Part shown: piece by piece, positions 3,454-22,900 of the stretch
Numbering within the stretch: the first letter of the stretch is position 1
Layout of the letters: the number at the start of each line of letters is the position of its first letter
Notes under the pieces: generated by a model
The model's input: only the letters and a program-made list of their open reading frames with translations
Databases searched by the model: none
Told to the model about the DNA's origin: nothing
From: a virus
Taxonomy: Duplodnaviria > Caudoviricetes
DNA: 26,266 bases
Virus record (IMG/VR): IMGVR_UViG_3300020042_001918
Location: 1 to 26,266 of that record
Direction: 5' to 3' (one strand)
Made by a program: the position numbers and the translations under genes

Positions 3454-3478
3454 GCCCCCTTTATTGGGGGCTTTTTTT
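3454..3478 (+). terminator. Rho-independent terminator ending the late operon
   Basis: GCCCCC-TTTATT-GGGGGC stem-loop followed by TTTTTTT, at the convergence of the + and - operons. Confidence 0.85.
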
Positions 3479-3659: not shown

Positions 3660-3814
3660 CTTTGATGTTCCTTTGCGGCAATCATTGGTTCAACGTAAGC
3701 CGCAATCTTATGAGCAAATTGGACAATGTCCACTTCATCAGCAATCAAAGCATTGGGTTTATATTGATCACAGTAGAAAAAGATTTGCTTAATGGTTTCT
3801 TCACTCAATTGCAT
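3590..3814 (-). CDS. Hypothetical protein
   Basis: 74 aa; AAGG(T) RBS upstream; overlaps the preceding gene's end in operon fashion. Confidence 0.7.
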   Translation of the reverse strand: MQLSEETIKQIFFYCDQYKPNALIADEVDIVQFAHKIAAYVEPMIAAKEHQRCVQIVSDMNREVANALNNQKPK

Positions 3815-4016
3815 TTTTTACCTTCCAAAGTTCCCAGTTGATAACAGTTGTACGAGCAATAGACCGTGAGGTCATTGCTTTGTATTGGTTTAATTCGCTG
3901 TCAAGAAAATCTTCAACGATTATGTTTTTTTCAAGAAACATCTCATGTCTCTCTGCTTGAATGGCATTGTCAAAAAGAGTGCCATCAGTAGTTTTATATG
4001 CTTGTATTTTTTCCAT
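3801..4016 (-). CDS. Hypothetical protein
   Basis: 71 aa starting 2 nt after the exonuclease stop; N-terminal Y-x-T-x-D-G-x-x-F pattern common in small phage proteins. Confidence 0.7.
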   Translation of the reverse strand: MEKIQAYKTTDGTLFDNAIQAERHEMFLEKNIIVEDFLDSELNQYKAMTSRSIARTTVINWELWKVKNAIE

Positions 4017-4018
4017 AA

Positions 4019-4797: not shown

Positions 4798-5442
4798 TTA
4801 AAAGGGAATGTCACTGTCCATGTCATCAAACCCACTGCTAGGCTTTGAGGCTTTTTCATGCTTATCTTGCCATTCAGGAGACCCCATGATCTTTTCCTTA
4901 AGCCCATCTCTGAAAGTTTCAAAGACTGCCATGTCAGGCTCATCAATTGAAAAGATTACAGTAGGGTTATGACCTTCAGGCAGACCTGCTTTTTTGATCT
5001 GAGGGGGTACTGATAGGATGGCTTGAATGTTGGAATACTCTTTGCCATTGTTGCCAACTGCTTTAACGATGGAAAGCATAGCCCAGGCCCCAAGAACATT
5101 TTTGAGTTCAAAGCCTCTAAGTTCATCAGGTGTAAACTCTCTGCCCCTCCAAGTCTGCAAGTCCTTTCTAAGGGTTGCTTTCTCAGATAGGGATAGGGTG
5201 AAGTTCTTGGTCACACTTAAAGGTTCACCCTTTGGGGTAGTCAATGGTTTGCCACTCTCATCCTCACCAAACACCTCAAACTGAAACATCACTTTGGGCA
5301 AATGTTTAATCTGTCCAAGATACTCACTTCTTTGAGTTCCAAGGTCAACCACTCGGTAGCACCTTGCAAGATGCATCCCTGATGGGACATTGAAAAATGT
5401 ATTGGCACTACCGCCACTCTCTTTTGCTACTAAAGCCATCAT
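4798..5442 (-). CDS. Putative single-stranded DNA-binding protein
   Basis: 214 aa ending in the acidic SSB-type tail FDDMDSDIPF; beta-rich N-terminus; AGGAG RBS; adjacent to the exonuclease. Confidence 0.7.
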   Translation of the reverse strand: MMALVAKESGGSANTFFNVPSGMHLARCYRVVDLGTQRSEYLGQIKHLPKVMFQFEVFGEDESGKPLTTPKGEPLSVTKNFTLSLSEKATLRKDLQTWRGREFTPDELRGFELKNVLGAWAMLSIVKAVGNNGKEYSNIQAILSVPPQIKKAGLPEGHNPTVIFSIDEPDMAVFETFRDGLKEKIMGSPEWQDKHEKASKPSSGFDDMDSDIPF

Positions 5443-5621
5443 TCACTCCTAGTTATGGATATTGTTTCTAAAGTCACTTTTGGTTGGCTTGGTACACCAC
5501 ATTCATATCTGATGATGTTCCAATCCTCTGCGGTTGCAATGCCTGATTCAGCCCTTATGAGAGCCTCTTCAAGCATCTGTTGCTTCTCAAGCATTGCTTG
5601 TTCATATTCACTCATGGTCAT
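5439..5621 (-). CDS. Hypothetical protein (MTMSEYEQ..., 60 aa)
   Basis: ATGA overlap with the upstream gene's stop at 5618-5621 and with the downstream gene's start at 5439-5442. Confidence 0.7.
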   Translation of the reverse strand: MTMSEYEQAMLEKQQMLEEALIRAESGIATAEDWNIIRYECGVPSQPKVTLETISITRSE

Positions 5622-5800
5622 TTCACCCATATAAAAAAAATACCTAATGCCCAAGCAATCATTAGGATGAGGTAAACCCACCATTGGATAGGCTTCTCTC
5701 TATCGCCTAACAAAGCCCTTTGCATGAGGATCATGTCGGGATCATTCTCAACTCTGAGTGGCCGCTGGTAATGGCAGCCGATTTTCACTTTTTGTTCCAT
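5618..5800 (-). CDS. Small membrane protein, first gene of the leftward early operon
   Basis: 60 aa with a C-terminal hydrophobic segment WWVYLILMIAWALGIFFIWV; lies just downstream of the leftward promoter. Confidence 0.65.
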   Translation of the reverse strand: MEQKVKIGCHYQRPLRVENDPDMILMQRALLGDREKPIQWWVYLILMIAWALGIFFIWVK

Positions 5801-5829
5801 AGATTCACTTTTGAGTTAAACACCTTTCT

Positions 5830-5858
5830 AATATATCAAATTTAACTTGAAGATACAA
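5830..5858 (-). promoter_or_regulatory. Leftward sigma70-like promoter
   Basis: Minus strand reads TTGTAT-N17-TATATT, with an extended -10 TGn. Confidence 0.65.
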
Positions 5859-5863
5859 CCCCC

Positions 5864-5891
5864 TTGCACAAACCTTTTTTTGGTGTATGAT
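5864..5891 (+). promoter_or_regulatory. Rightward sigma70-like promoter
   Basis: TTGCAC-N16-TATGAT, back-to-back with the leftward promoter; followed by an AAGGAGG RBS and ATG at 5917. Confidence 0.6.
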
Positions 5892-5916
5892 GAGGTTAAA
5901 CCAACAAGGAGGATTT

Positions 5917-6117
5917 ATGAAAAGCATAGGTAGTTTGATGGATGAGTTAGAGGCTGACCTGCTACGGAAGTTTAAGGAGATTACCCCTGAACAACTAGCA
6001 GCTGATGAGCAAAAACGCAAAGCCAAAAGTGAGTATGAGGCACTTCATACGGCCATTGAAACTGATGAGGATAGGGCTAACAAGGATGAATATCCTAATG
6101 AAGATGAAGATGAATAA
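5917..6117 (+). CDS. Small acidic hypothetical protein
   Basis: Strong AAGGAGG RBS before ATG 5917; 66 aa with a D/E-rich C-terminus. Confidence 0.7.
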   Translation: MKSIGSLMDELEADLLRKFKEITPEQLAADEQKRKAKSEYEALHTAIETDEDRANKDEYPNEDEDE

Positions 6118-6128
6118 CAAGGGGGAAT

Positions 6129-6341
6129 TTGATGACACTAAGTGAATTTTTTGATGCAAAGCCAAGAGGGGCAAAGGTTGCCATGGCTAAGAAACTTAGG
6201 GTGAGCAAGACATGGATCAGTCTCATCATAAGTGGCAGACAAGTGCCTAGCCCTGAGTTGAGTGGGGCAATTGAAAGATACACCAATGGCTTGGTCAAGA
6301 GGGCAACCTTAAGACCTGACATTTTTGGAGAACTCAAGTGA
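6129..6341 (+). CDS. Cro-like HTH regulator (YdaS-like)
   Basis: HTH MAKKLRVSKTWISLII, followed by AIERYTNGLV..LRPDIF, typical of the YdaS/Cro family. Start is TTG 6129 or ATG 6132. Confidence 0.8.
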   Translation: MMTLSEFFDAKPRGAKVAMAKKLRVSKTWISLIISGRQVPSPELSGAIERYTNGLVKRATLRPDIFGELK

Positions 6342-7003
6342 TTTGGTACAAATTCCACATAGGTGACTACATCACACACACTAAGCATATCTCTGATGCT
6401 GAAGACCTTGCCTATCGGAGACTTCTTGATCTGTACTACATGAGTGAGAAACCAATTCCACTTGATGTGAAGGCAGTTGCAAGAAAAATTGGCATGGATA
6501 CTGAGGAAACCGAATCGGTTTTGGTAGAGTTTTTTGATAAGCAAGAAAATGGTTATCACAATAGTCGAGCAGACGTTGAAATAGCCAAATATCAATCTCA
6601 AGTTGCAACCAATAGAGAGATCGGAAAAAGAGGGGGCAGACCCAAGAGCCTTGAAAACAAAGGGTTTAAACCAACCGAAACCGAATTAATAACCGAATCG
6701 GATACGGATACGAACCCTAAGAAGATACAGATACAGAAGAAGAATAACAATATATCGTCGAAATTCGACGAGTTTTGGCAACTGTGGCCAACATCAAAGA
6801 GAAAGGTAGCCAAGTCTACTTGTGAGACCAAGTGGGTCAAGCACAAGTTGGATCAGTATGCTGACCAAATCTTTGATCATGTTTCAGCCCTAAAGACTTC
6901 TGAGCAATGGACTACAGGGTTTGAACCCGCCCCCTTGACTTACATCAACCAAAAGAGATGGGAAGATGAGATTCAGACCCCAATTGCAAGGAGAGGCATA
7001 TGA
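6338..7003 (+). CDS. Replication initiator, DUF1376/YdaU family
   Basis: WYKFHIGDY..T.HIS..EDLAYRRLLDLYY N-terminus, GKRGGRP linker, and C-terminal FDEFW..WP...P.TYINQKRWEDE domain. Confidence 0.85.
   Translation: MIWYKFHIGDYITHTKHISDAEDLAYRRLLDLYYMSEKPIPLDVKAVARKIGMDTEETESVLVEFFDKQENGYHNSRADVEIAKYQSQVATNREIGKRGGRPKSLENKGFKPTETELITESDTDTNPKKIQIQKKNNNISSKFDEFWQLWPTSKRKVAKSTCETKWVKHKLDQYADQIFDHVSALKTSEQWTTGFEPAPLTYINQKRWEDEIQTPIARRGI
6671..6771. repeat. Iteron-like repeats / probable replication origin inside the initiator gene
   Basis: AACCGAA at 6673, 6679 and 6691; GATAC at 6701, 6707, 6724 and 6730; palindrome TCGTCGAA-A-TTCGACGA at 6755-6771. A related palindrome AAACCGA-A-TCGGTTT lies at 6507-6521. 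Lambdoid origins lie in the initiator's linker region. Confidence 0.6.
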
Positions 7004-7431
7004 CCCCTGTTGAGAGGATGCTCTCTAGGCTTGAGAAAGTCAAAGGTAGGAACGGTTCCTGGACTGCTTGTTGTCCTGCCCACAATGACAAATCCCCATC
7101 CCTTGCAATCAGAGAGGGTGAGGATGGTCGGGTCTTGCTCCATTGCTTTGGGGGGTGTGAAACCATCAATGTCATCCAAGCCTTGGGCATGGACATGAAT
7201 GACCTATTCCCTCCAAGGAGAGAGTGGAGTGGTGAGACCCATTCAACCAAGCCTATGAAGCCTGCATTTTATGCAAGTGACTTGCTCAGAATTATTTCTT
7301 TTGAGTGCTTGATTGTGTCCATTTGTGCCTATGACATGAGTCATGGCAAGAAGATTCAAGATGAGGATAGGGAAAGACTAAAGGTTGCCCAACAAAGAAT
7401 TGAAGAGGTGATGCACTATGCAAACATCTAA
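7000..7431 (+). CDS. Primase zinc-finger (CHC2-type) domain protein without a TOPRIM domain
   Basis: CCPAHNDKSPSL..LLHCFGGC motif; only 143 aa; ATGA coupling to the initiator. Confidence 0.8.
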   Translation: MTPVERMLSRLEKVKGRNGSWTACCPAHNDKSPSLAIREGEDGRVLLHCFGGCETINVIQALGMDMNDLFPPRREWSGETHSTKPMKPAFYASDLLRIISFECLIVSICAYDMSHGKKIQDEDRERLKVAQQRIEEVMHYANI

Positions 7432-8422
7432 TGTTCTTCAGAGGGCAAGAGAGTTAGATGACATGAGGAAAGCCCGAATCCTTAGACCTGATGAAATTGA
7501 TTTTGACAAGTACCTCAAATCAACTGATTTGACTCAGAAGATTAAAGAGGCTCAGGTATACATTGAAGAGCTGCAAGCAGAGATATTGAATCCTGTGCAT
7601 GAGAAGTTTACAGTCATGCCTTGGTCAAAGACTCACTCAACCTTTCAGTTTAGACAGGGTGAGGTAACCCTATATGCGGGATCAAATGGTGGTGGCAAGT
7701 CCCTTATCACAGGGCAGATTGCCATGGGTTTGATGAAGCAGAACCAAAAGATTTGTATTGCCTCATTTGAGATGAAACCTAAGAGGACTTTGTATCGGAT
7801 GCTTAGGCAGTTTGCAGGTGAGAACATTGATGCCCCAAGATTTATAGGCAAGAGCAAATACATAGATGACTTGCTTGTTCGGCTTGGCTCATTTGTGGAT
7901 GAAAAGTTGTGGCTCTATGACCAACAAGGAACCGTGACATCTCAGCAAGTTATTGCAGTTGCAAGGTACTGTGCCATGGAGTTGGGTGTGCAGCATTTCT
8001 TTGTTGACTCATTGATGAAGTGTGTAGCGGGTGAGGATGATTACAACGCACAGAAATACTTTGTAGATGAGTTGACTGCATTGGCTCGTGACCACAACAT
8101 TCACATTCACTTGATTCACCACATCCGCAAGTTGGCAAGTGAAGAGATCATGCCAAACAAGAATGATGTTAAAGGCTCAGGTGCTATATCAGACCAAGTT
8201 GACAATGTGCTAATGGTGTGGAGAAACAAGAAGAAAGAACATGATATGCACCTCAAGGGGACTGCTGACAAGTTTGCCCCTGATGCCATGTTGATGTGTC
8301 ACAAGCAAAGGAATGGTGAGGCAGAGGAGTGGTACAACCTTTGGTACAACAAAGAGAGTCAGCAGTTTGTAGATGCATCTGATTCTGTGCCAATGGCTTT
8401 TGATGACAAGGGGGATTTTTGA
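7418..8422 (+). CDS. SF4 replicative helicase (DnaB / T7 gp4-like)
   Basis: Walker A GSNGGGKS, SFEM, Walker B FFVDSL, HLIHHIRK, DVKGSGAISDQVDNV and KQRNG arginine finger. Confidence 0.9.
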   Translation: MQTSNVLQRARELDDMRKARILRPDEIDFDKYLKSTDLTQKIKEAQVYIEELQAEILNPVHEKFTVMPWSKTHSTFQFRQGEVTLYAGSNGGGKSLITGQIAMGLMKQNQKICIASFEMKPKRTLYRMLRQFAGENIDAPRFIGKSKYIDDLLVRLGSFVDEKLWLYDQQGTVTSQQVIAVARYCAMELGVQHFFVDSLMKCVAGEDDYNAQKYFVDELTALARDHNIHIHLIHHIRKLASEEIMPNKNDVKGSGAISDQVDNVLMVWRNKKKEHDMHLKGTADKFAPDAMLMCHKQRNGEAEEWYNLWYNKESQQFVDASDSVPMAFDDKGDF

Positions 8423-8673
8423 GTGACTTATTCACGCGATGGGGAGAAGGAGAAGGAGAAGATGAGTTTCGCCATCGTTGTCTCGTTCGCGCCATCCTCA
8501 AAATGCGCCTACAAGATCGTCAGAAGGCACACGTATGGATCAATGGAGGTGTTAACCGAGTTGGTAAGCGTGTCAAAGGCTGGAATGAAATGCATCCCGG
8601 ATCAATTTTGGAAAGAGATATTCGGGATCAATGGGACAAGGGAAACCGTGGATCAGATGGTGAATGGAAATAA
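8419..8673 (+). CDS. Hypothetical protein
   Basis: GTGA overlap with the helicase stop; GGGG RBS; 84 aa (RHRCLVR...QWDKGNRG). Confidence 0.65.
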   Translation: MSDLFTRWGEGEGEDEFRHRCLVRAILKMRLQDRQKAHVWINGGVNRVGKRVKGWNEMHPGSILERDIRDQWDKGNRGSDGEWK

Positions 8674-8729
8674 AAGGCAAATACTTGAGTTGAATGAGAG
8701 AGAACTAAAACGAAGAAACAAGGAAAAAA

Positions 8730-9077
8730 ATGATTGAACTAACACTACCTTGGCCACCAACGGTTAACACCTATTGGAGACAATTCAATGGTCGCACCAT
8801 ACTGAGTGCCAAGGGTCGTGAGTACCGCAAAGCAGTAGCCGATCAGGTACTCATACAAAGGGGTGCAAAGCATTATGACTTTGCTCTTAAAGTAACTATC
8901 AAGGCATACCGACCTGACCGCAGGCGGCGTGACCTCGATAACTTACTCAAAGCAGTCCTTGATGGCATGACCCATGCAGGGGTTATGAAGGATGACTGCT
9001 TAATCGTAGACTTGCGAATCTTTTGGGCAGAAGAGGTTGGCGGGATGGTCAAAGTAACAGTAGAAGGAACAGAGTGA
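8730..9077 (+). CDS. rusA: RusA-family Holliday junction resolvase
   Basis: LPWPPTVNTYWR, PDRRRRDLDNLLKAVLDGM and DDCLI motifs; AAGGA RBS. Confidence 0.92.
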   Translation: MIELTLPWPPTVNTYWRQFNGRTILSAKGREYRKAVADQVLIQRGAKHYDFALKVTIKAYRPDRRRRDLDNLLKAVLDGMTHAGVMKDDCLIVDLRIFWAEEVGGMVKVTVEGTE

Positions 9078-10223: not shown

Positions 10224-10429
10224 GAACAGAAGAAGATGAGGCATTTGATGAGTTGGAGCAATCACTTGGTTGGCGCAAGCGACAGATTGTTCAGCGTCAA
10301 CTAAACACTGAAGAAAACATAGCCCGCAATGAGGTGCTTGAAGAAATAGCCATTGTGTTTGACAAAATGAAATCCTCTGGCGATACAGCCGCATCCTTTG
10401 CGGCATATGTGCGAGGTATGAAAACATGA
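10220..10429 (+). CDS. Hypothetical protein (MRTEEDEAF...)
   Basis: ATGA overlaps at both ends. Confidence 0.7.
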   Translation: MRTEEDEAFDELEQSLGWRKRQIVQRQLNTEENIARNEVLEEIAIVFDKMKSSGDTAASFAAYVRGMKT

Positions 10430-12171
10430 ATTATTTATCCGTGTGTTCAGGCATAGAGGCAGCATCTTGTGCTTGGCATGATCTTGGTTGGAATCCTGTT
10501 GGCTTCTCAGAGATTGAGAAGTTCCCATCAGAAGTGTTGAAACATCATTACCCTTATGTCCCTAATTTGGGTGACATGACTAAATTTAAGGAGTGGAATC
10601 TTGGAACAAATGTCAATGTTTTCGTCGGAGGAACACCTTGCCAGTCGTTCAGTGTCGCCGGACTTAGAAAAGGATTGGATGATCCGCGTGGGAACCTCAT
10701 GCTCACCTATCTTGCAATTGCTGACCGATTTCGCCCCAAGTGGTTGGTTTGGGAGAACGTCCCCGGAGTCTTGTCATCTAACGACGGACAAGATTTTGGC
10801 ACCTTCCTTGGAGGGTTGGGGGAACTCGGGTATGGGTTCGCATACAGAATTCTTGACGCTCAATACTTCGGAGTGGCCCAGAGAAGGCGTCGCGTGTTCG
10901 TTATTGGACACCTTGGAGACTGGCGACCTGCCGCGGCGGTACTTTTTGAGCGCGACAGCTTGCAGAGGAATCCTGCGCCGAGCCGAAAAGCGAGAGAAAG
11001 AACTTCCGGCTTCTTTGAAAGCAGCCTTGCTCAATACCGCGCAGCAGACGTCGGAGGAACTCTCAAAGCAAGCGGAGGAGTCCTTGGAGGAGGAAGCGAA
11101 ACTTTCCTTGCCCAACGAGTTGATGGATCAACAGATGGACGAGGAGTGACTGGACCTTTAATGGCTAGGGACTACAAGGGGGTAGACAACTATGACCACA
11201 CCAAGGTCATCCCTGTGGTCTATGAGAATCACCCTGCGGATAGCCGAATTGAAGAAATGGGTGATGTCTGCTCAACCGTGACATCAAGATGGGGTACAGG
11301 AGGGGGCAATGTTCCATTTGCGACTGCCGCCTTCTCTATCCGAGAGGATGCCCAAGCCAACAACTTCAGTGCAACTGAGTTGGAAGTGGCTACCGCACTA
11401 AAGGCATTGCAACCAAGCGCACAGTCTCACCATGCTCAGACCTTTGTGGCTCAAGTGGACTGCTACCCCATCAGCACTCAGAATGCTTTGGGAAGGGTCA
11501 ATGGACGCGAGGATTGGCCCCTTGGGCTGTTTAATGAGGGTGAGCCATCCCCTACCCTCACCAAAGCCCATGGTCATGCCGTAGCCCTTGCATACAACTT
11601 TTCTCCGGGTAAGGGGGATTTGAAAGATGACATCCATGTCACCCAAACCGATACGAGCAAGACCTTGGATGCAGTAGGCAGCAATCCCAATATGCATCAA
11701 GGTGGCACTGGAGTTGTTCAGCCCAAGGTGTTTTCGTTTGATAGCACCGAGAGCAACTCTATGAAGTCAAGCAACCCTGATAGTGGTTGCCGTGAGGTTG
11801 ACCTCTCCAAGACCTTGGACACTACTCAGCCAAACCCCGCCAAGGGTCAAGGTGGTATTGGCATCTTGCATCCGATTGCCTTTAGTTCCATTGATGATGG
11901 TCGGGATGCAACTGAGGGTCTGTCCCCAACTCTAAGGGTGGGCGGCAACTCAGGAGGCATGATGGGTGTCCAAGCATCAATGGCTGTACGAAGACTCACG
12001 CCAACTGAATGTGAACGTCTTCAGGGCTTCCCTGATGGTTACACGAACATTAAGAAAAACTGTCCTGATGGCCCAAGGTACAAGGCATTAGGCAACTCTA
12101 TGGCGGTGCCTGTAATGAAGTGGATTGGTCAGAGGATTGCTGACTATGAAAAGAATGTAGGGGGCAAATGA
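10426..12171 (+). CDS. dcm: DNA (cytosine-5) methyltransferase with an expanded variable region
   Basis: Motifs I SVCSGIEAA, IV GTPCQSFS, VI ENVPG, VIII QRRRRVF, IX RRLTPTECERLQGFP and X YKALGNSMAVPV. Confidence 0.93.
   Translation: MNYLSVCSGIEAASCAWHDLGWNPVGFSEIEKFPSEVLKHHYPYVPNLGDMTKFKEWNLGTNVNVFVGGTPCQSFSVAGLRKGLDDPRGNLMLTYLAIADRFRPKWLVWENVPGVLSSNDGQDFGTFLGGLGELGYGFAYRILDAQYFGVAQRRRRVFVIGHLGDWRPAAAVLFERDSLQRNPAPSRKARERTSGFFESSLAQYRAADVGGTLKASGGVLGGGSETFLAQRVDGSTDGRGVTGPLMARDYKGVDNYDHTKVIPVVYENHPADSRIEEMGDVCSTVTSRWGTGGGNVPFATAAFSIREDAQANNFSATELEVATALKALQPSAQSHHAQTFVAQVDCYPISTQNALGRVNGREDWPLGLFNEGEPSPTLTKAHGHAVALAYNFSPGKGDLKDDIHVTQTDTSKTLDAVGSNPNMHQGGTGVVQPKVFSFDSTESNSMKSSNPDSGCREVDLSKTLDTTQPNPAKGQGGIGILHPIAFSSIDDGRDATEGLSPTLRVGGNSGGMMGVQASMAVRRLTPTECERLQGFPDGYTNIKKNCPDGPRYKALGNSMAVPVMKWIGQRIADYEKNVGGK
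10601..11149 (+). CDS. Overprinted +1-frame ORF, candidate MTase beta-type polypeptide
   Basis: 182 codons nested in dcm; AAGGAG at 10588-10593 lies 7 nt before TTG 10601; contains the motif IX-like RYFLSATACRGILRR. Confidence 0.6.
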   Translation: MEQMSMFSSEEHLASRSVSPDLEKDWMIRVGTSCSPILQLLTDFAPSGWFGRTSPESCHLTTDKILAPSLEGWGNSGMGSHTEFLTLNTSEWPREGVACSLLDTLETGDLPRRYFLSATACRGILRRAEKREKELPASLKAALLNTAQQTSEELSKQAEESLEEEAKLSLPNELMDQQMDEE

Positions 12172-12428
12172 ACAATCAACTCACCAAGGTAGAGAGGGAG
12201 CATCTAGGCAGAGTCAAGGAACTGCCTTGCTCTGTCTGTGATCAGCCAGGCCCTTCAGATGCTCACCACATAGAGCAAGGACTGCAATACACTTGTATTG
12301 CCCTCTGTAAGGACTGCCATCAGGGGTCATTTAATGGATGGCATGGGCAGAAAAGGATGTGGTCGATCAAGAAAATGGGGGAGTTGGATGCCCTTGAAAT
12401 CACCCTAAAGAGGTTATTTTCTAGGTGA
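12168..12428 (+). CDS. HNH-like Zn-binding nuclease (Ref/DUF968-like)
   Basis: CSVC..DAHHI..LCKDCH motif; ATGA coupling to dcm. Confidence 0.75.
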   Translation: MNNQLTKVEREHLGRVKELPCSVCDQPGPSDAHHIEQGLQYTCIALCKDCHQGSFNGWHGQKRMWSIKKMGELDALEITLKRLFSR

Positions 12429-12474
12429 TTTCCCTAGTTTTTGCATTTATTTTGCTTTTTTTACAACATAGGGG

Positions 12475-12503
12475 TTGAGTATCGTTTAATTTGATATTAC
12501 ACT
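12475..12503 (+). promoter_or_regulatory. Sigma70-like early promoter
   Basis: TTGAGT-N17-TACACT preceded by T-rich UP-like tracts (12438-12462) and the inverted repeat CTAGG-N7-CCTAG (12421-12437). Confidence 0.6.
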
Positions 12504-12544
12504 AGCATCACCAACACAAATTCAGTTGGGTAACTTAAACAAAA

Positions 12545-12853
12545 GTGAGTAAACAAATGAATGCACCTCTCAACATCTCAGCAGTATCAGTAGACACACT
12601 AGGTACTCTCTTGGCTCAGATTGCTGATCTGACTAAGCAAGCCGACATGATCAAAGACTTCATCAAAGACCAAGCATCTCTAGGGGGTGCAAAGGTTGTA
12701 GAGGGTTCATTGTTCAAGGCAACCTACATTGAGTCCAATAGAAGTTCAGTTGACTACAAGACATTGTGTGCTGATCTTGGCATCACATCAGAGCAAGTTG
12801 CTCAGTACACAAAGACCTCAGCAGTTTTCTCAGTCAAGGTCACATCCAAGTAA
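12545..12853 (+). CDS. Hypothetical early protein (start GTG 12545 or ATG 12557)
   Basis: About 100-aa ORF downstream of the promoter; coiled N-terminus and beta-rich C-terminus. Confidence 0.75.
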   Translation: MSKQMNAPLNISAVSVDTLGTLLAQIADLTKQADMIKDFIKDQASLGGAKVVEGSLFKATYIESNRSSVDYKTLCADLGITSEQVAQYTKTSAVFSVKVTSK

Positions 12854-12860
12854 AGCAACT

Positions 12861-12877
12861 CCCCCCCTCAAGGGGGG
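12861..12877 (+). other. GC hairpin between genes (no U-tract)
   Basis: CCCCCCC-TCAA-GGGGGG; could be an mRNA-stabilising or processing hairpin or a weak terminator. Confidence 0.45.
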
Positions 12878-12912
12878 ATTCAAAACACTTCATAAACTCT
12901 TAGGAAAACAAA

Positions 12913-13410
12913 ATGAACTTCTCAGTAAAAAACATCAAGTCTTTCAATGGTAGAGAGGGTGTTGGCTATTCAGCAACCTTGTATCTTGATGGCAAAAAGT
13001 TTGCAGAAATCTTGGATGATGCAAATGGGGGTGAGGTAGATGTGCATTGCTTTGATGTAGATGCAACCAAAGTCTCAATCAATACTTACATTGGCAAAGA
13101 TGGTGTGCAACATACATGGAATGTGACTCCCAACTATGCCTTGTTGCACAACTATGTAAAGACTTTGCCAAAGTGGAAAAGTTCATTTTGTGATGAGATG
13201 TATGACATGGAAGTAGGCTTGTTTGTAGAAGAGTTGGTCAACAAGATTTTGGAAGAGAAGAAGTTGGCAAAGGCTAAGAAGAAAGGCATTTGCTTCAAAC
13301 TTACTGCTGACAACAAGAATACCTATAGAACTATCAACACACATGACATGGAAGTAGCAGTTAGCTACTTGAACAAGCAGTTTGGTCTTAACTCTTATCA
13401 ATTCATTTAA
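12913..13410 (+). CDS. Hypothetical early protein
   Basis: 165 aa; AGGA RBS; N-terminus GREG..YSATLYLDGKK..DDANGG. Confidence 0.8.
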   Translation: MNFSVKNIKSFNGREGVGYSATLYLDGKKFAEILDDANGGEVDVHCFDVDATKVSINTYIGKDGVQHTWNVTPNYALLHNYVKTLPKWKSSFCDEMYDMEVGLFVEELVNKILEEKKLAKAKKKGICFKLTADNKNTYRTINTHDMEVAVSYLNKQFGLNSYQFI

Positions 13411-13423
13411 GGACAACTTAATC

Positions 13424-13711
13424 ATGTTGACATTTGTAGAAGTATCAGAGTTCAAGCCAAGGGCTAAAAGGGCTGAGTTGACCCAAGACCAAATGCAAGA
13501 TTGGTTCAACAAAGTCAAGCCAACTTCCAATTGGAAGAACCCAATCAAGAAGACTCTTGTTCTTGAGAATGAGGATCAAATTGAAGATGTGATGAAGTCA
13601 ATCACATGGTTTGTAGGGGGGATGACTGATGTTGATGTCATCAAGAGGATGCCTAACTCAGTATCGGTTAGGTTTTGCAATCAAGGTTATTACAACAACA
13701 TAGGAGCATGA
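13424..13711 (+). CDS. Hypothetical early protein
   Basis: AAGGA RBS before ATG 13424; contains NWKNPI and GYYNNIGA. Confidence 0.75.
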   Translation: MLTFVEVSEFKPRAKRAELTQDQMQDWFNKVKPTSNWKNPIKKTLVLENEDQIEDVMKSITWFVGGMTDVDVIKRMPNSVSVRFCNQGYYNNIGA

Positions 13712-14055
13712 GCATGAACACAATCAAGTTAAAAGAGGCTATCAGAGTCATAGCACAAGGGGGGTTTATCAAAAGCCCAAGCAATCACTTTTCAACCTAT
13801 ACAAGCCTTTGTGACAAGGATGGACTCCAAGTAGGTAGGGTGACTCAAGACTGCTACTTTGAGGTCATGGACTGCCTTTATGGGCTATGGAAACATGGTT
13901 GTCAACTTAAGGATGAAGACTTTATGGAAAAGGTCTATCACTATTCCACAATTAAGGGTGACTTCAAGCAACTCAACAAGGTATTGGAGATGGGTGCTTC
14001 AGAGCAAACAATGTATAGGTTTTTAAAACAAAGTGAGGAGTTAGACCATGTCTGA
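13708..14055 (+). CDS. Hypothetical early protein
   Basis: ATGA overlap at 13708 (alternative ATG 13714 with AGGAG RBS). Confidence 0.7.
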   Translation: MSMNTIKLKEAIRVIAQGGFIKSPSNHFSTYTSLCDKDGLQVGRVTQDCYFEVMDCLYGLWKHGCQLKDEDFMEKVYHYSTIKGDFKQLNKVLEMGASEQTMYRFLKQSEELDHV

Positions 14056-14215
14056 AACAATCATGTCAGATTACATCAAGGGGTTCAATGATGGGTATGC
14101 CTATACCCTCAATGAGATAGAGAAACAGATCAAGAATGCCAATAGCCATGATGCTTTGGTCTTAGTACAACTTTTGCAACACCTCAAATTGGAGAAGAAA
14201 AATGACACACTTTGA
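14048..14215 (+). CDS. Small hypothetical protein (55 aa, not in the ORF track)
   Basis: Translated by hand as MSETIMSDYIKGFNDGYAYTLNEIEK...KKNDTL; GAGGAG RBS; fills the operon gap. Confidence 0.7.
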   Translation: MSETIMSDYIKGFNDGYAYTLNEIEKQIKNANSHDALVLVQLLQHLKLEKKNDTL

Positions 14216-14477
14216 AACCATGGATACCATTGTCAAGCAGTTCTTTGATACCTTGCCCAAGGTCAGACTTGCCTATTGTGACTATATTGCTCACATCATC
14301 CAAGGGCATCTCAAGGTCAATGATAGAGAGAAGATGCTCTCAAGTATTGGCATGATCAAGTCTGACAATGATCCTAGTGGCTCATTTGCCTCTACCAAGA
14401 AGACCATCATGGTTGAGGATCGCAATGGCAAGCAGTACAAGATCACTATTGAGGAGGTTGAGGATGAACAGGCATGA
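14202..14477 (+). CDS. Hypothetical early protein
   Basis: 91 aa; GGAG RBS; ends with VEDRNGKQYKITIEEV. Confidence 0.75.
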   Translation: MTHFETMDTIVKQFFDTLPKVRLAYCDYIAHIIQGHLKVNDREKMLSSIGMIKSDNDPSGSFASTKKTIMVEDRNGKQYKITIEEVEDEQA

Positions 14478-14598
14478 GATAGATGAAATGATGAGGGGGC
14501 TGCCTAGCCAACAAGAATATTATGAGGAGTCAATTGGCAACAAAGTGCTAGGGGGCTTGTCATTTATTCTGATTGTCATTACCATATGTTTCATCTAA
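14464..14598 (+). CDS. Small membrane protein (44 aa)
   Basis: GAGGAGG RBS before ATG 14464; C-terminal hydrophobic VLGGLSFILIVITICFI. Confidence 0.65.
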   Translation: MNRHEIDEMMRGLPSQQEYYEESIGNKVLGGLSFILIVITICFI

Positions 14599-14600
14599 AA

Positions 14601-14645
14601 AGTGAACCGATAGTGAATCGAAAGTGAATCTAAACCGATTCGGTT
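14601..14645. repeat. Three 11-bp tandem repeats plus a palindrome upstream of terS
   Basis: AGTGAACCGAT / AGTGAATCGAA / AGTGAATCTAA, then AACCGA-T-TCGGTT (14633-14645). Two further copies lie at 14769-14790. Confidence 0.7.
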
Positions 14646-14833
14646 ATGCATGGTGAATGAGGACACCTACAAACTTCTGACTGCTAGGAAAGACTAGCAC
14701 TTCCTTTTTCTGCATAGGTGTAGTAAAATGTGCAGACTAGCCCATGGGCTTGGCAAAATTCCCCCAAAAGTGAATCAAAGGTGACTCATAGGTCTACATG
14801 ACCTTTGTTCAACTCTCATGGGGATTAGGGGTT

Positions 14834-15421
14834 ATGCCTGAAACTAAGAAGACTGCCAATAAGTCAGGAACCGCCAAGGTTCAGGGAGCAGTTGCCTCCG
14901 AAGCCGCAAAAACCCCCCAAAAACCCAAACAAACAAAACCCAAGAGAACCCCTCGCATGGCATTCAGCCAACACATAGCAGATACCATCTGTACTATGCT
15001 ATCGGAGGGAATGAGTCTAAGACAAATACTAAAGGCTGACACTCAAGGCAAGTTACCCGCTCAGTCTACGATCTATGAGTGGTTGATCCGCTTCCCTCTG
15101 TTCGCGGAGCAATACGCACGCGCCCGTGAGGAACAAGCCGACACCAACGCTGATGAAATCCTTGACATTGCAGATGAGATGCCCCCTGAGTACACCGATG
15201 ACAAGGGGCGAACTAGCCTAGACATAACTTACATCCAGTGGCAGAAGAACCGCATCGAGGCCCGGAAGTGGACAGCAGCAAAGTTGCGGCCAAAGAAGTA
15301 TGGCGACCGTGTGGCTGTGGAGGGTGTAGAGGGCGGAGCGCCTATCAAGACTGAGGACACCGGGGCAAACAAGTTCCTTGAGATCATAAAGAACATGGAA
15401 ATGAGCAAACGTGCAGGCTAA
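14834..15421 (+). CDS. terS: Terminase small subunit (Sf6-like)
   Basis: ICTMLSEGMSLRQIL..PAQSTIYEWL HTH, QYARARE, DEILDIAD and IEARKWTAAKLRPKKYGD; immediately upstream of terL. Confidence 0.9.
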   Translation: MPETKKTANKSGTAKVQGAVASEAAKTPQKPKQTKPKRTPRMAFSQHIADTICTMLSEGMSLRQILKADTQGKLPAQSTIYEWLIRFPLFAEQYARAREEQADTNADEILDIADEMPPEYTDDKGRTSLDITYIQWQKNRIEARKWTAAKLRPKKYGDRVAVEGVEGGAPIKTEDTGANKFLEIIKNMEMSKRAG

Positions 15422-15505
15422 GTATTACATTCAAGCGCCAGCAAGTCTCCAAAAACGTGGGGTTTTATCCGCTGTTTTGGCTGATTTGGGCGGAAAGTAA
15501 TACTT

Positions 15506-16915
15506 ATGTTGGCTGAACTGTTTGATTCTGAAACCTTTGCGGAGTTTGATGCGCAGGCAGAGCATGATCGCATAGCCCAGATTGCCCATGCCAAGTGGGT
15601 TGCCAGCGCACACAAGTACCAGATTCCCCCACCGCTTGAGCAGGATTATTCGGTCTGGATGATGCTCGCGGGCCGTGGAGCGGGTAAGACTCGGTCAGCC
15701 GCGGAAGCCTTATGGTGGTGGTGCTGGATCAACCCAGGAACCAGAGGTTTGGTTCTGGCTCCTACTTCTAATGACATCAAGTTCACCTGCTTTGAGGGGC
15801 AGTCAGGGCTGCTTGCTTGCATCCCCAAGGAACTGGTTGTGGACTACAACAAGCAAGATCACCAGATCAAACTGTCCAATGGCTCGATTATCCGGGGCAT
15901 CTCTGGCGACTCCTATGAGCGCTTGCGGGGTCCTCAATTTCATTGGTGCTGGGCTGATGAGTTAGCCGCCTTCCAGTATCTGGGGCCTGGAGAGGCTTGG
16001 GACATGATGGTCATGGGTCTGCGCCTTGGTAACCATCCCCGTGTTATCGTGACCACCACGCCCAAGCCCAAGGACTTGATCCTTGATCTGATAGGCAGGG
16101 AGGGTGATGATGTGGTGATTGACCGCGCCAGCACCTATGAGAACAAAGACAACCTAGCCCCCTCATTCTCTAAGCAGCTAGAGCAGTACAAGGGCAGCAA
16201 GCTATATCAGCAAGAGGTGTTGGGCGAGATCGTTGACCTCGAGGATGGCAAGGTGGTCAGCCGGGATATGTTCAAGTTGTGGCCACATGACAAGGCATTC
16301 CCAAAGTTTGAGTACATCATCCAGTCTTATGACTGTGCCTTCTCAGAGAAGGAACACAATGATCCGACCGCCATGACTACTTGGGGCATTTTCCAGCCTA
16401 TGGACGGCCCCATGTCGGTCTTGCTGATTGACTGCTGGGCAGAGCATCTGGCTTTCCCCCAACTCAAGTCTAAAGTCCTTGATGAGTGGCGAGTCTCCTA
16501 TGGTGAGGGCAGGGATGCCAAGCGCCCTGACTTGATCCTAGTTGAGGACAAGGCGGCTGGCATCTCTCTGATTCAGGAACTGAGGCAGGCCCATTTGCCT
16601 GTGACTGGCTGGAACCCGGGGCGGGCTGACAAGATGCAGAGGCTTCAGATTACGGCGTCCATCTTTGCGACTGGTCGTGTCTGGTTGCCTGAGTCAAGTA
16701 TCCGAAAGGGTTACGTCAAGGATTGGGTAGAGGGCTTCCTGTCCCAATTGTGTTCGTTCCCTGACTCAACCCATGATGACTATGTGGACAGTGCAACTCA
16801 GGCGATCCGATACCTAAAGGATGGCGGCTGGCTCGACATTAACCCTGAGCCGCATTATGATGACGAAGACTATGCGGAGATCAGACCGCAACGTATCAAC
16901 CCTTACGCGGCATAA
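15506..16915 (+). CDS. terL: Terminase large subunit
   Basis: Walker A AGRGAGKT, LRGPQF..WADE Walker B, TTTPK coupling motif, and nuclease motifs SYDCA, VEDKAAG and HDDYVD. Confidence 0.95.
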   Translation: MLAELFDSETFAEFDAQAEHDRIAQIAHAKWVASAHKYQIPPPLEQDYSVWMMLAGRGAGKTRSAAEALWWWCWINPGTRGLVLAPTSNDIKFTCFEGQSGLLACIPKELVVDYNKQDHQIKLSNGSIIRGISGDSYERLRGPQFHWCWADELAAFQYLGPGEAWDMMVMGLRLGNHPRVIVTTTPKPKDLILDLIGREGDDVVIDRASTYENKDNLAPSFSKQLEQYKGSKLYQQEVLGEIVDLEDGKVVSRDMFKLWPHDKAFPKFEYIIQSYDCAFSEKEHNDPTAMTTWGIFQPMDGPMSVLLIDCWAEHLAFPQLKSKVLDEWRVSYGEGRDAKRPDLILVEDKAAGISLIQELRQAHLPVTGWNPGRADKMQRLQITASIFATGRVWLPESSIRKGYVKDWVEGFLSQLCSFPDSTHDDYVDSATQAIRYLKDGGWLDINPEPHYDDEDYAEIRPQRINPYAA

Positions 16916-16920
16916 ATACC

Positions 16921-19900
16921 ATGGGAATCAATAAGATCATTGAGGGCGGTTTGGGCATCATCAAGTCTGCAGGTCGGACTGCCCATGAGCAGGAGGCGGC
17001 CATTCGTGCTGCACAGAATGCCAAGGTTGCCGAGCAGATGGCTAACCTGCCTCCTCGGAATAAGAAGGCAAATGAGGCTTTGGGTCTGTACCATCCTGTG
17101 GGCGGGGGCATCAAGTTGTCTAAGCCAGTGTCTGGGATGCACGCTACGACTGTGCCTGACCCCAAGTTCAAGCCGCCAAAGATTGGGACTATTACCCCTG
17201 AGCAGCTGGTTAAGGAGGAGGCGGCACTGTTTCCTCTCGTTGGTGACCGAGCCGCCGCAGGTCGATACCTAACTCACGTTGGCGAGAACGAACTTGAAGC
17301 GCCTGTTAGGTTGACTGGTGGCCCTCGCTACATGGATGCCAATTACAACCCAATCAACCCTGATGACTCAGCCGCATGGGAGTCAGGACTTAGTCGTGTA
17401 ACCGCGCTTGGGCGTCAGGCTGAACGCGCAGGAGAAGGCGGTCGCCCTGTCTATGGCATTTACACCGCAGGCTCTGGCACAAACACTGACTTCAACATAA
17501 TGGGTGCGAACGCGCTGATTCAACAGATACCTTTTAGCAAGATTACGAAGAAGGCGGAAAAGGCATTTGACCAAGCGATGAGGGCTGGCTCAGAGATGTT
17601 TGCGCCTATACCAAATTGGCCCGGCATCCGTAGCCCATCGGCTCAAGAGATGATCTTAGACAAGAGCAATGGCATTGTTCGCACCAAGTTGTTTGACACA
17701 ATGGGCAAGGAAGAGTTTCAGTCTATGGGCTTTCCAGAAGTCCCAGGCACCCGCAAGGCGATCATTGAACCTGAGTTGCTTGATGTGCCGACGAATCAGG
17801 CGGGCTTTAGGATGGCTAGGATGGACACAAGCGGTCGGATTATTGAAGACCCAATCATCCCTTCCGACTATCCGACTGCATGGGCGGGTCAGGTTGCGGG
17901 TAAGTTAGATCAGCCTGCAGACTTTAAGGATGTATGGCAGACCCACCATGAGGCGCGCCGCCTATTGAACAAACCTGAGTCTGGTGACTACTACTCATTC
18001 TCTCGCGCCCATCCGATCCAGTATGCGGATCAGCAGTGGCTAGACAGGCTGATGCAACAGAGGTTTGCCAATGAACGCAAGATCAAAGAGGGTGAGTACA
18101 AGGATGGCGGTGAGGTTGAGGAGGTTGATATGACTGATGCCGACAAGAAGTTGCACGCCCTCATTGATGGGCATAGGTTCAAGCACTCCATGAAGAGTGG
18201 GGGCAAGGTTGAGAGCAAGATTGAGGGGGATCACCCTGATGCCAAGTTGCACGCCTTGATTGAGACTCGCCGTAAAGAGGTGCGCATGGCTAGTGGTGGT
18301 CAGGCTTTTAAGGCGGCAATGAAGGCTGGCGCAACCGAAGCTAAACCGATTGGGTTTGACAAGGGCGGTGCGGCATTTGGGTTTTTCCCTCAGTTAAAAG
18401 CCAAGAGGTCTAAGCAAGACCCAGAGGCGGCTAAGAATGTGCCTGTTGATGTAGCCCGCGGTGTGGTCTCTGGTGTGCTTGGTGCGCCCGGGGACATTGA
18501 GTCCTTGCTACGCATTCCCTATGATTACCTGCGTTCTCCGACCATGTCTGAGTTGGTGACAGGGGAGAAGAAGAGCAAGACCTTTGCCCCAACGTCTGAG
18601 GACATTGAGAAGAAGTTGCCATTCAAGTCTGACACGCCTGTGAGCCGAGCGGCTACGGGTGCAGGTCAGTTGGCTGGTGGTTTCTACTATGGGCCTGGCT
18701 CTCCGCTCAAGGTGATCGCTAATCTGCCGGGAGCAATCAAGCATGGGGCAACAGAGTTTGCCAAGGCATCAGCTGCTGGCGCATCTCGAGTGATGAAGCC
18801 AGAGGGCGGTAACTGGATACCCGGTGAAGTTGAGAATGCCGTAAAGCATTTAAAACGAAAGACTATTTCTAACTCTGATCCTGCAGAAGTTCTTGAAGAG
18901 TTCAATAAAACTTACACACCCAAAGCACTTGAGGGTATGTATGAAAATTCTAGGCGAGAGATATTGGAATACAAAGACCTTTTGGAGAGGGATGTAGCCC
19001 TTAATAGTTGGGTTGACAATAACTTGTCCAATTACATTAAAAAACAGATGGGAACTGAAAAAGACCCCGTCCGTTTGTTGGCTGATGAGGGCATCACACA
19101 CTACTCTACTGAAGGTGCAATGCGTAATGCAATGAACACTTCATATCAGCAATTTGTAGAAAATAGAAAATTAAGAGGCAAATTGGGTATGCCTGAACAG
19201 CCTTTAGCTAAGACTGATTTGGGTCGCACTTGGGAAGAAGGTATTGATAACATACTTGACCAAGGCAATATGGTTTCAGCCAAACAATTGGAAGGTGGAA
19301 AACTTTACAGAAACAATCCATGGTTGCAAAAACTTCCACCAGATAGCACTTTGTATCGTTTAGATCCAGCTAGTGTTGAGGATATGAACATGATTCATAT
19401 CATGGATGTCTTAAGGGAAGACTTGGCAATAGGTCGGATTAAACCTAGTGATCTCAAGAATTTCAGCATGGATCGTGCGGTTCGTCGCACCCATGAATAC
19501 AACCAAGAAATGGCTAAAAAAGCGGAAGAAGCTACTGCCAAAAAACTTGAGGGCATGACTGTTTACAAGGAATATCCAAATGGCTTTAAGTGGGTGAAGT
19601 TAGAAAAGCCCGGTGATTTTGCTGCTGAGTCTGATGCCATGGGACACTCTGTGCGTGGGTATGAACCTCCTCCGAGACATCCTGATTGGGTAGAGGGGTC
19701 TGGAGATCGAGGCACACCATCCTATGGGTTAGGTGGATGGGAAGCCATTAAGAGTGGCAAAGCCCAAGTCTATTCATTGGTTGACCCCAAAGGTAATCCT
19801 CATGCAACCATTGAGGCAGGAGCCGTTGGTAGACCTCGATATGAAGAGATTAGAAATCATTTTGATGAGGCACATGAACAAGTCGTCAAAGAAATGAAAG

Positions 19901-22900
19901 CGCAGGGTATGGATACAAGTGATCCTACTAAAGCCAATGGATTGGCATGGAAGCGTGCTGAGGAAATTGCTCGTGAACAAGGTTACCAATTTGTCAATCA
20001 AATCAAGGGCAAGGGAAATGACCGCCCAATTAACAAGTATGACCCTTACACCCAAGACTTTGTAACTACTGGCGATTGGACAGAGGTAAGGGACTTGCAA
20101 AACACTGGCTTGAAACTTGTTGGTGAAGCATTCCCTCGAAGGGATGACCAGCTAGGTTTTCAGAAGTTGTTTCCTGAACAAAGGTATGTAACCCCTGATG
20201 AGGTCAATGCTTACAAAACAAAAGCCGATCAAGACTTGATTGATCAATACAAGGATTGGAAGTCTAAGGTTGACTTTGAAGACCCTCAGTTCAAAGACTA
20301 TGAGGGGCCAGAGTTTATTACCAATGAAGAATTTTTCAAGCATTACTTCCCAAATGAGCCTGCCGCTCAAGCCGACTTCATTAGAGGTGGGATGGATAGT
20401 CCATACATGACTCCACCAGAGAGTCTTGGGATGAAAGATTGGGATACCCTAATGAATGAGGGTGTGTTCTCCTATGATGATGTGAGTTTTCTTAACAAGG
20501 TAATGCCTCAGAGGTATCTGACTGCTGAAGATATAGCCAAGGCAAAAGCCCGTTTAGAAGAGCCTCCACTTGCTGAGAAGAATGGTGGAGTTATCCACAT
20601 GAAAAAAGGTGGGGACGATCTTGAGTCTGAGTACAAAGAATTGAGCAAGCCTGCGTTCTACCCAAAAGTAGGAAACATCAAGAGCAAGAACTACAATTCG
20701 CCACAGAACAAACCATTTGTTGATGATCCACGTGCTATGGAAATCCCAGATGTAGATGTGGATGTTCCGACCAAGGAAAACCTTGAGATGAGCAGACGCT
20801 TGGCACAGCGCCAAGGTGAGTTAGAGAAGCAGATTCAGGCTGACAGATCACCCTTGGACAAGTTGGCAGGCACTATTCAAGGCGGTCGCCTTTTAGGTTC
20901 TGCTGTGTTGCAAGGCATCAACTCTATGCCAACGAGATTGGTTCATGGTGACAAGGCAGCTGAAAAGTTCATTCAGGATCGCATCTATAAGCCTACCAAT
21001 GAGTTGGGTGTTGAGTATGCTAGTGATACTGCAAAGTTCCTTGAGGAACTAGAAACCAAGTACAAGTTACCACCCGTTGCAACGGGTGATGTGCTTGGCT
21101 TTGCACCATTGATTCAAGCGGGTGTTGGGCAGGCAGCAAAAGCCGCGGGCAGTGGAACTAAGAAGTTTGCCAAGGCATTGGCTGAGACCGCTGGTGAGAA
21201 GATTGCCATGGGTCAGCCTCTGGTTCCTGGGGTGCCTGCTTCCATAACTAACCCCATGGTCAAGCACATCATCAAGCCAGAGGGTGGTAATTGGCAAAGT
21301 GGCAATAGAAGTGTTGAAAGCAGATTAAAGCCATACAAGCAAGGCGCACATGATGTTAACCCAATGGATGCAGAAGAACTTGGCATTCAGTTATCCCCAC
21401 AAGATGCCGCATTGAACAAGTGGATTGATTCCAACTTGACTAATTACATGAAGAAGCAATTGGGGACAGAGAGCGATCCAATTCGCAAATTGGCTGATGA
21501 GGGCATCACCCACTATGCAGACATGAATGCGATGCGGCGTGACTTAGGTTCTGGATACAACCAAACCGCAGACAATAAAAAGTTACGTCAAAAGTTTGGA
21601 ATGCCTCCATACTCAATTGCTGAAACTCCTATGGGCAAAAGTTGGGAAGAGGGAGTAGATGCTCTTATTGGCAATGAGACCCAATTACTTAGCAAATATG
21701 GAACACAGGCTCGTCTCAAAAAAGACCCTTGGATGGCAAACTTGCCAAAGGACACACCTTTCTATGGTATGCCCCCACGAGGTTTCTATTCTGATTTGGG
21801 TATGAGCCACATCATTGATGTGTTGCGTGAAGATTTGGCAACAGGTCGCATCCGTCCTGAGCAACTGAACAAAGTGTCAATGAGGCAAGCGGTTCAGCGT
21901 AGCCATGAGTACAACCAAGAGATGGCCAAGAAAGCAGAAGTGGCTCAAGCCAAAAAACTTGAGGACATGACAATTTATAAAGAGTACCCTGAAGGGTTTA
22001 GATGGGTGCAATTAGATAAACCCGGGCAGTTTGCAGCTGAATCAGACGCCATGGGGCATTCAGTCCGTGGTTATGAGCCTCCTCAAGGTCACCCTGACTA
22101 TATTCCCGGGTCAGGTAATGCTGGTAGTGAGTCCTATGGTTTGGGTGGGTGGGAAGCTATCAAGAGTGGTGATGCCAAGATTTATTCATTGATTGACAAA
22201 GATAATAAACCCCATGCAACTATTGAAATTGGCAAAGGTAATGATGCTCAAGCCTTTTTTGATGCCCACAAAAATTATTTGGATAATCCTGTAACAAAGC
22301 GTGATTTATCAATGATGGTTGATCCTGATTTGGATATACCACTTAATACGCAGCGCGTAACTGCAATGAAGCAATTGCTTGATGAAATGGGTGTTCAATA
22401 CCGTGATGTGCCTGAAGCCCCACCACACATCAATCAAATTAAAGGCAAAGGAAACCGCACTCCTAATGAGCAATACCTTCCTTATGTTCAAGACTTTGTA
22501 AAGTCAGGCAAATGGAGTCAAGTGAATGACATTGACAATTCTGGCTTGATTGAACATAGTGGTAAATATTTTACAGAGCCTGAACTTATTGAGGCAGCCA
22601 AAAAACATGGACGCATGGGTGTTCAAGATGTTCCATGGGAAGTTGCTCGCCAACGACATATGGAGGCTGGTATTTCTGAAGATGAGGCTTTACGCAATTG
22701 GATTGAAGCATTCAAAGAAGGTCGAGGCAAATTAGACATACCCCCTGAAGGTCAAAAGCGTGGTGGTCTGATCCATATGACTGAAGGTGGCTCACCGCGT
22801 TTGCCCACGAATCTTCACCCAGATGTGCAAGATGCATTAAAAGCTGGGCGCATTACGCCCAATCAAGCCAAGTGGATGAGTAACTATGCAAGGACTGCTG

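Follow-up and report, generated by a model that had tools for sequence, protein, structure and literature searches.

The stretch of DNA analysed here, called the window throughout, is a 26-kb piece (26,266 nucleotides) of a phage genome of about 54 kb, the complete relative G001 measuring 54,284 bp, and the labelled sequencing runs that contain the phage are mostly from freshwater. The window carries, in order, injection genes, a leftward operon with an exonuclease and an SSB-like gene, a rightward cro-initiator-primase-helicase-RusA-methyltransferase operon, the small genes E1-E7, and then terS, terL, a gene for a 2799-aa protein, and the portal gene; no tRNA genes were found in 6 loci. The methyltransferase (MTase), a C5 cytosine enzyme of 581 aa (10426..12171, forward strand), is followed on the same strand by g86 (12168..12428), which encodes an 86-aa Cys/His protein (phrog_1588) with a single CG. 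A terminator-like hairpin at 12421..12437, also forward, ends this MTase-g86 unit. The next element is a putative sigma-70 early promoter at 12475..12503 on the forward strand (TTGAGT, 17 bp, TACACT), which matches the consensus at 8 of 12 positions, below the cut-off of a promoter scan that gave nothing above chance (12 vs 17.3). An A/T tract precedes it, and its -10 region is conserved in 6 aligned phages.

All of the small genes downstream lie on the forward strand: E1 (12545..12853; 102 aa, phrog_6244; 1 CG), a core gene of the phage family, E2 (12913..13410; 165 aa, phrog_17767; 0 CG), E3 (13424..13711; 95 aa; 1 CG), E4 (13708..14055; about 113 aa; 0 CG), and E5, E6 and E7 (14048..14598), three small genes with 1 CG in total. 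The fold of E2 is predicted with confidence (pLDDT 91.5), and its matches are uncharacterised viral proteins only (best VIA Z 4.4), with none among solved structures, while the predicted structure of E4 (pLDDT 64) matched nothing in the viral library or the Atlas; we speculate that E4 is a candidate counter-defence protein. Judging from gene type and the likely sigma-70 promoter, E1-E7 would form an immediate-early unit. Its right boundary (14598..14798) consists of repeats with an 11-bp period and a palindrome, AACCGAWTCGGTT (14633-14645), with a terminator-like hairpin at 14682-14699; CG is retained in the repeats and the palindrome, which are likely protein-binding sites.

What sets this region apart is the near absence of CG. 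The sequence-only reading had reported three CG dinucleotides in about 2060 bp, near 12643, 13665 and 14421, and that count is exact: positions 12541-14600 hold these 3 where base composition predicts 84.7, an observed/expected ratio (o/e) of 0.035. GC dinucleotides are as common as it had said (81, o/e 0.96), and arginine in E1-E7 is indeed mostly AGA/AGG, with CGN at 1 of 15 codons. The depletion stands, but not its left edge, which lies about 430 bp further left and takes in the gene at 12168-12428; the purged block, which recurs in relatives, thus extends over 12106..14606, with 5 CG against 104.6 expected. The whole window is CG-poor (o/e 0.51; 0.56-0.63 in the remainder), and even at this already depleted rate the Poisson probability of 3 or fewer CG is 3e-15. 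CA/TG rises to 1.49 in the block, and among other k-mers TAA, ATAA and AGCT are modestly low.

Codon usage, the control that the same reading had called for, does not explain the depletion. At codon junctions the block has 1 CG, compared with 48.6 +/- 4.6 in 1000 within-block synonymous shuffles, and its proteins written in late-gene codon usage would carry 71 CG (minimum 49 among 2000 recodings). C-ending codons are favoured before other bases (62%), yet CG junctions are nearly absent, and CG has been emptied from all three codon frames. The block has lost every NCGN context; over the whole genome, CG palindromes are still present. A context scan to 12 bases found no longer motif around CG: of its 96 tests, those that stood out were for A/T immediately beside the CG and for a single G, 11 bases upstream (z -3.4); in a strand-specific context comparison, the effects of the CG flanks varied with reading frame.

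A second trough lies at 4798..8422 (39 CG vs 169 expected, 0.23) and covers the SSB-like gene (NGO0469 family), g81, g60b, g76, cro, the initiator, the primase Zn-finger, and the helicase. It is kept in G001, G002, G011 and L247, and the SSB-like gene is as depleted as had been claimed, with 3 CG in 645 bp. Most of the CG left in this trough sits in repeats and palindromes of the replication initiator gene (DUF1376; 6338..7003, forward strand), where 13 of 17 CG are clustered; the clusters at 6508-6520, 6674-6715 and 6755-6771 are likely the origin. The initiator palindrome reappears directly right of the block (3 sites vs 0.02 matches expected), so CG appears to survive where it is probably part of a protein-binding site. 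Further right, terS (Sf6-like) and terL (14798..16915, forward strand) are moderately depleted. There are 6 CG within 15061-15120, as counted before; however, the depletion does not vanish in these genes as had been stated, since o/e is 0.59 in 14607-16915 and terL has 17 junction CG against 45 when shuffled. The CG-rich contrast gene g84 may be doubly coded.

The depletion is graded by gene class. Expressed as a log-odds deficit of junction CG, the G001 values are 4.0 for the block, 3.2 for replication, 1.7 for middle, 1.0-2.0 for packaging, 1.2 for injection and 0.7 for tail genes, and 0.0 for the capsid gene; over the window and G001 together the ranges are 4.0-4.7 for the block, 3.2-3.6 for replication genes, and 1.0-2.0 for middle and packaging genes. 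In five complete sister phages, 22 of the 23 gene rows have a deficit of 0.0-1.5, and the remaining row, a short E1, has 2.3. The suppression is thus synonymous-level, strongest in the genes presumed to be expressed first and relaxed in those presumed later, and the CG deficit would track expression time, with the timing itself taken from gene type.

The earlier suggestion that the gradient be sought in relatives was also followed, and the pattern recurs in G002 (2 CG vs 77.7 expected in the same block), G011 (2 vs 92.4) and G001 (5 vs 70.7), which as clade relatives are not independent samples; their E2 proteins are 47-95% identical to that of the window. Conservation of the pattern was also drawn from L090 and L091, and the same block in L327 has 0 CG against 46.2. 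Across the clade, o/e is 0.10-0.19 in the SSB-like gene, 0.22-0.26 in primase, 0.23-0.32 in helicase, 0.59-0.68 in RusA and 0.51-0.58 in terL, while sisters, from which the pattern is absent, mostly lie at 0.7-1.3. Among the best 80 of 322 TerL loci, 8 are at 0.41-0.59 and 72 are not depleted (0.77-1.07); at helicase/E1 loci 7 of 144 fall under 0.65 (median 0.94). In a set of 463 redundant viral loci, windows of 1.5 kb under 0.1 were confined to this clade, L447, L501 and the L327 group. No cultured relative was found (best TerL 56%). The g86 gene, at 0-0.07 in 4 relatives and 0.72-0.80 in non-depleted orthologues, lies upstream of the putative promoter and behind the terminator, yet is purged, and a mechanism acting on early transcripts would leave this unexplained.

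The early genes very probably lost CG by selection rather than by mutation. Selection against CG had been one of two readings offered from the sequence, and it is supported by the codon controls, the gene-class gradient, the divergence between relatives and the fate of arginine codons. Conserved arginines that are CGN in sisters have become AGR at 5 of 6 positions in the SSB-like gene, 6 of 7 in primase, 9 of 14 in helicase and 4 of 4 in cro, against 0 of 8 in terS, 1 of 16 in portal and 3 of 19 in terL. In E1, positions that are CG in sisters have become AG 42 times and TG 34 times. The CGN to AGR change needs a transversion and AG is about as frequent as TG, so deamination cannot account for the change. 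By a two-state calculation, if CG were hypermutable, synonymous sites capable of CG should show about twice the raw divergence; the observed values are 47/593 at CG-capable and 166/1192 at control sites between the window and G002, and 115/1016 and 403/1891 between G001 and G011. In tracts below 10% local divergence the pooled CG/control ratio, from hand sums, is 0.4-1.0 depending on window size, and in the narrowest window the two lowest-divergence bins give 1.4-1.8 (sisters 0.9-1.6) on few, noisy sites. Polarised with an outgroup, ancestral CG disappeared about as often as control sites did, and in 7 of 8 comparisons CG gains equalled or outnumbered losses, counts that outgroup saturation biases. 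For middle genes the ancestral CG loss is 5/40 against 38/248 in the control; middle and late genes are without excess CG loss, which indicates that no purge is in progress there.

These numbers bear directly on the other reading that had been offered, in which 5mC deamination linked to the phage MTase removed the CG; a CpG MTase of the host is a second conceivable driver. All four longer clade genomes have a large C5 MTase, which is missing from 4 of an initial 5 complete sisters (from 5 of 6 once G145 is included), and the raised CA/TG in the block is of the kind expected. Against this, CG shows no hypermutability, arginine switching requires transversions, related MTases in 76 non-clade loci are accompanied by no 1-kb window under 0.24, and the 10.5 kb of L392, where o/e is 0.13, contain no C5 MTase; a regional mutational effect would, we infer, demand about 100-fold local hypermutation. 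With CG loss not above control and CG-poor relatives lacking a C5 MTase at the matching place, we regard deamination as extremely unlikely. M.MpeI, a bacterial CpG methyltransferase linked to CpG under-representation (as cited in PMC11282364), resembles the present case in being CG loss in a prokaryotic setting, but there the effect is mutational and genome-wide, whereas here it is gene-specific and without hypermutability. The window's MTase itself, at o/e about 0.6, has a long variable region in which a simple pattern for the TRD motif finds 7 TRD-like Thr-Leu/Val motifs, with an eighth seen by eye, and the enzyme is likely multispecific. Bacillus phages have multispecific C5 methyltransferases, and the repeated TRD-like motifs are the point of likeness; the window's enzyme would suit the protection of CG palindromes and does not fit the early purge. 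Multispecificity fits the survival of CCGG, GCGC, CGCG and ACGT in the clade, sites that are absent from its lambdoid partners.

Phage motif avoidance is usually explained by restriction sites of 4-8 bases. Applied here, the block would be the first DNA to enter the cell, purged because a CG- or mCG-cutting nuclease acts until an inhibitor is made. Such leading-region avoidance is described in T5-like and T7-like phages (PMC10644984; PMC12455610), the block does end at conserved repeats before terS that are a possible packaging signal, and the host pool is apparently rich in 4-base cutters, since the lambdoid group has 0 ACGT, CCGG, GCGC, CGCG, GGCC and AGCT in 31 kb. The T5-like and Autographiviridae cases share with ours a sub-genomic motif purge in early genes that is relaxed elsewhere; they differ in that here a 2-base word rather than a 4-8 base site is lost, in two troughs, in graded fashion and from a likely headful-packaging phage. 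A stretch of 4 kb with unpurged genes separates the two troughs (o/e runs from near 0 in the block through 0.6 in the MTase, 0.25 in helicase and 0.1 in the SSB-like gene to 0.55 in the exonuclease), so there is no point from which the depletion changes monotonically. The described cases depend on a fixed leading end (PMC12455610; PMC10644984), the Sf6-like TerS suggests headful packaging, for which leading-region avoidance is not expected (PMC12455610), and transcription of the block runs towards terS, all of which makes the earlier proposal that the block is the first-ejected end a poor fit. Contig ends, which are not virion ends, show no pile-up. The residual CGs also speak against a single-hit lethal cutter, and the clade's depletion does not fall on CG palindromes (CGCG 197, GCGC 349 in 119 kb). 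Virulent phages avoid Type II restriction sites (PMC6286503), and the clade's avoidance of AGCT and GGCC, like the lack of six palindromes in its lambdoid partners, resembles this; Type II avoidance is genome-wide and palindromic, however, and cannot empty non-palindromic CG contexts. Avoidance tied to entry order is therefore unlikely.

A further possibility is that the pressure against CG is uniform and that gene flow made the pattern, the block being either a cassette from a CG-free pool or the longest resident, and the late genes refreshed from sisters. A g86-promoter-E1-E2-E4 module is common to the lambdoid L327 and G001 (1305 bp at 92%), and TerL and portal have been reshuffled among clades. 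Yet non-depleted sisters, in which a cassette should be absent, carry orthologues of E1, E5, E6, E7 and g86; E1 orthologues, in particular, are found in 141 non-depleted loci at up to 83% identity, and E1 sits at the same place in sisters and groups, with weak support, with podophage orthologues. Core replication genes are purged too, o/e in the block is lower than in the lambdoid backbone (0.0 against 0.13-0.28), no excess of CG losses is seen in middle and late genes, and o/e stays at 0.4-0.7 in the MTase and g183 even though both reside in the clade. E2-E4 alone may be imports; that gene flow accounts for the pattern as a whole we consider improbable.

The reading that we prefer, with a probability of about 0.5, is that the early genes were recoded in place, with a host factor that reads CG penalising the phage genes expressed first. 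Neither codon use nor reading frame accounts for the purge, which has gene-sharp edges, is kept in divergent relatives, and is absent from sisters. Gene-sharp edges inside operons favour an action on transcripts or on transcription. Under this mechanism, the host factor would recognise the CG dinucleotide in phage mRNA or in actively transcribed DNA, and would act early, before phage proteins neutralise or out-titrate it, and later genes could thereby keep host-preferred CGN arginine codons.

Evidence from other phages suggests that the pressure is linked to the host. L327 is a 36%-GC lambdoid contig with the promoter-E1-E2-E4 module whose own genes are CG-poor (0.18), and with L390, L391, L392 and L499 it belongs to lambdoid phages at 0.13-0.28; the last four are without E2 and E4 at that site, and L391 has another gene in common with G001. 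That an unrelated lambdoid group which swaps genes with the clade is CG-poor too suggests a host-linked pressure. In L447, unrelated at the DNA level, the early operon has 6 CG against 132 expected and the sequence afterwards 17 against 24. L364, a sister that is not depleted (o/e 0.82), has recently exchanged DNA with G001 (826 bp at 97%) and has 224 bp in common with L391, which shows that gene sharing need not mean the same pressure. AT-rich freshwater phages are often CG-poor over the whole genome (12 of 34 E4-family loci at or below 0.37). Helicase relatives in bacterial genomes are mostly from Burkholderiales, the best (70%) being a prophage relative in a Limnohabitans bin. Searched at the DNA level, 127 Limnohabitans and 241 Polynucleobacter-like genomes yielded neither a spacer nor a close prophage. 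A 32-bp match, L594, was rejected as a CRISPR spacer because it lies on a phage-like contig and not in a CRISPR array.

The candidate host genera are not themselves CG-poor, at 0.73-1.09 in Limnohabitans (20 sampled of 127 genomes) and 0.65-1.11 in the Polynucleobacter-like genus (39 stretches); the O/E CpG values in Table S1 of PMC11282364 (Polynucleobacter 1.22-1.42) match our GpC rather than CpG and are not relied on. How such a factor would discriminate self from non-self is left unexplained by hosts of this composition, and this keeps alive a different account, in which the phage shuts off its host: an early phage protein would attack CG-rich host DNA or RNA, and the phage genes needed meanwhile would be purged to spare them. 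An analogy is T4 Alc, which acts on unmodified cytosine DNA. Such a shut-off explains a CG-rich host alongside CG-free early genes, E2 and E4 occur almost only in depleted loci (17/19 and 17/18 redundant loci), and the wider E4 family is found mostly in CG-poor phages. Conversely, L390, L391, L392 and L499 have neither E2 nor E4 at that site and are still CG-poor, E4 also occurs in the non-depleted L364, L655, L657, L674 and L681, and the predicted folds of E2 and E4 match no known nucleic-acid enzyme (for E4, in the viral library and the Atlas). We give this account a low probability.

Transcription itself might also exert the pressure. In E. coli, CpG at the active site induces RNA polymerase pausing and errors that are rescued by Gre factors (PMC4457086), and CG could be lost from strongly transcribed early genes because it causes pausing and G-to-A errors. 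The accompanying avoidance of G at -10 is lacking (log OR -0.03 +/- 0.06), 119 of 121 Polynucleobacter-like genomes have Gre genes, and CG is retained both by sisters that carry the same genes and by the capsid gene, observations that together make this explanation very unlikely.

Returning to a host factor that reads CG, we tentatively propose, as a possibility rather than an expectation, that some freshwater Burkholderiales possess an anti-phage factor sensing CG in transcripts or transcribed DNA, a counterpart of ZAP, and that unrelated phages converged on early operons kept CG-free until a counter-defence, such as E4, could act. To our knowledge, no ZAP-like factor is known for a bacterial host. 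Bacterial proteins that read CG or mCG are described (PsuGI, McrA, Mrr; PMC12707154), as are bacterial CpG-specific deaminases (bioRxiv 10.1101/2023.06.29.547047). The closest likeness is to the IE1 gene of HCMV, where CpG suppression is driven by ZAP (PMC7498042): there too a large dsDNA virus has CpG suppressed in its first-expressed gene, at the synonymous level, and relaxed later. The differences are that the present host is bacterial, that the depletion is graded over several gene classes, and that the action may be at the RNA or the DNA level. The present case may thus work like ZAP-driven suppression of CpG in early genes, by analogy, and we do not claim membership in a known bacterial system. 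Our literature search, with subscription journals mostly outside its coverage, found no report of CG avoidance in phage early genes. Selection that removes a two-base word to a degree that varies with gene class, and strongly enough to force the use of rare arginine codons, would point to a filter in the bacterial host that has not yet been described, and CG-free early operons would offer a cheap genomic screen for the hosts and for the factor.

The tetramers ACGT, CCGG, GCGC, CGCG, GGCC and AGCT are all absent from the 31 kb of L499, L392 and L327, members of an unrelated CG-poor lambdoid group, and the hosts of this group therefore seem to form a pool with many 4-base cutters; GATC occurs only twice in the same 31 kb. 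L447, a phage contig of 37% GC that is unrelated to the window, has a CG-free early recombination operon with a sharp edge (49-4022 of that contig), and a search for a close relative of L447 found none. The O/E CpG values of 1.22-1.42 published for Polynucleobacter (PMC11282364, Table S1) agree with the GpC, not the CpG, that we counted in related genomes.

The C5 MTase of the window (10426-12171) has a modular variable region of TRD-like units, whose number varies between relatives; the enzyme is 581, 617 or 677 aa long among them, with an open frame of 765 aa in G001, a complete genome of the same clade, and freshwater viral contigs carry hundreds of relatives of the enzyme. Between terL and the portal gene lies a 2799-aa gene with a GDSL-like domain (16921-25320), the counterparts of which in relatives are mosaic and span 1520-1720 aa. 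Two overlapping frames (2165-2668 and 2530-3417) encode the SLT (lytic transglycosylase) injection protein in the window, where G001 has a single 580-aa gene, reflecting either an assembly error or a frameshift. Dual coding is possible at 8419-8737, where the third positions of two overlapping open frames (8419-8673 and 8423-8737) are unusually conserved within the clade (0.73-0.75).

The palindrome AACCGAWTCGGTT is found twice in the initiator gene (6508-6520 and 6691-6701) and once before terS (14633-14645); it is kept in the clade relatives G001, G002 and G011, and the sister phages G145 and G006 have copies too. Together with 11-bp-period repeats, it may link the origin with packaging or late control.
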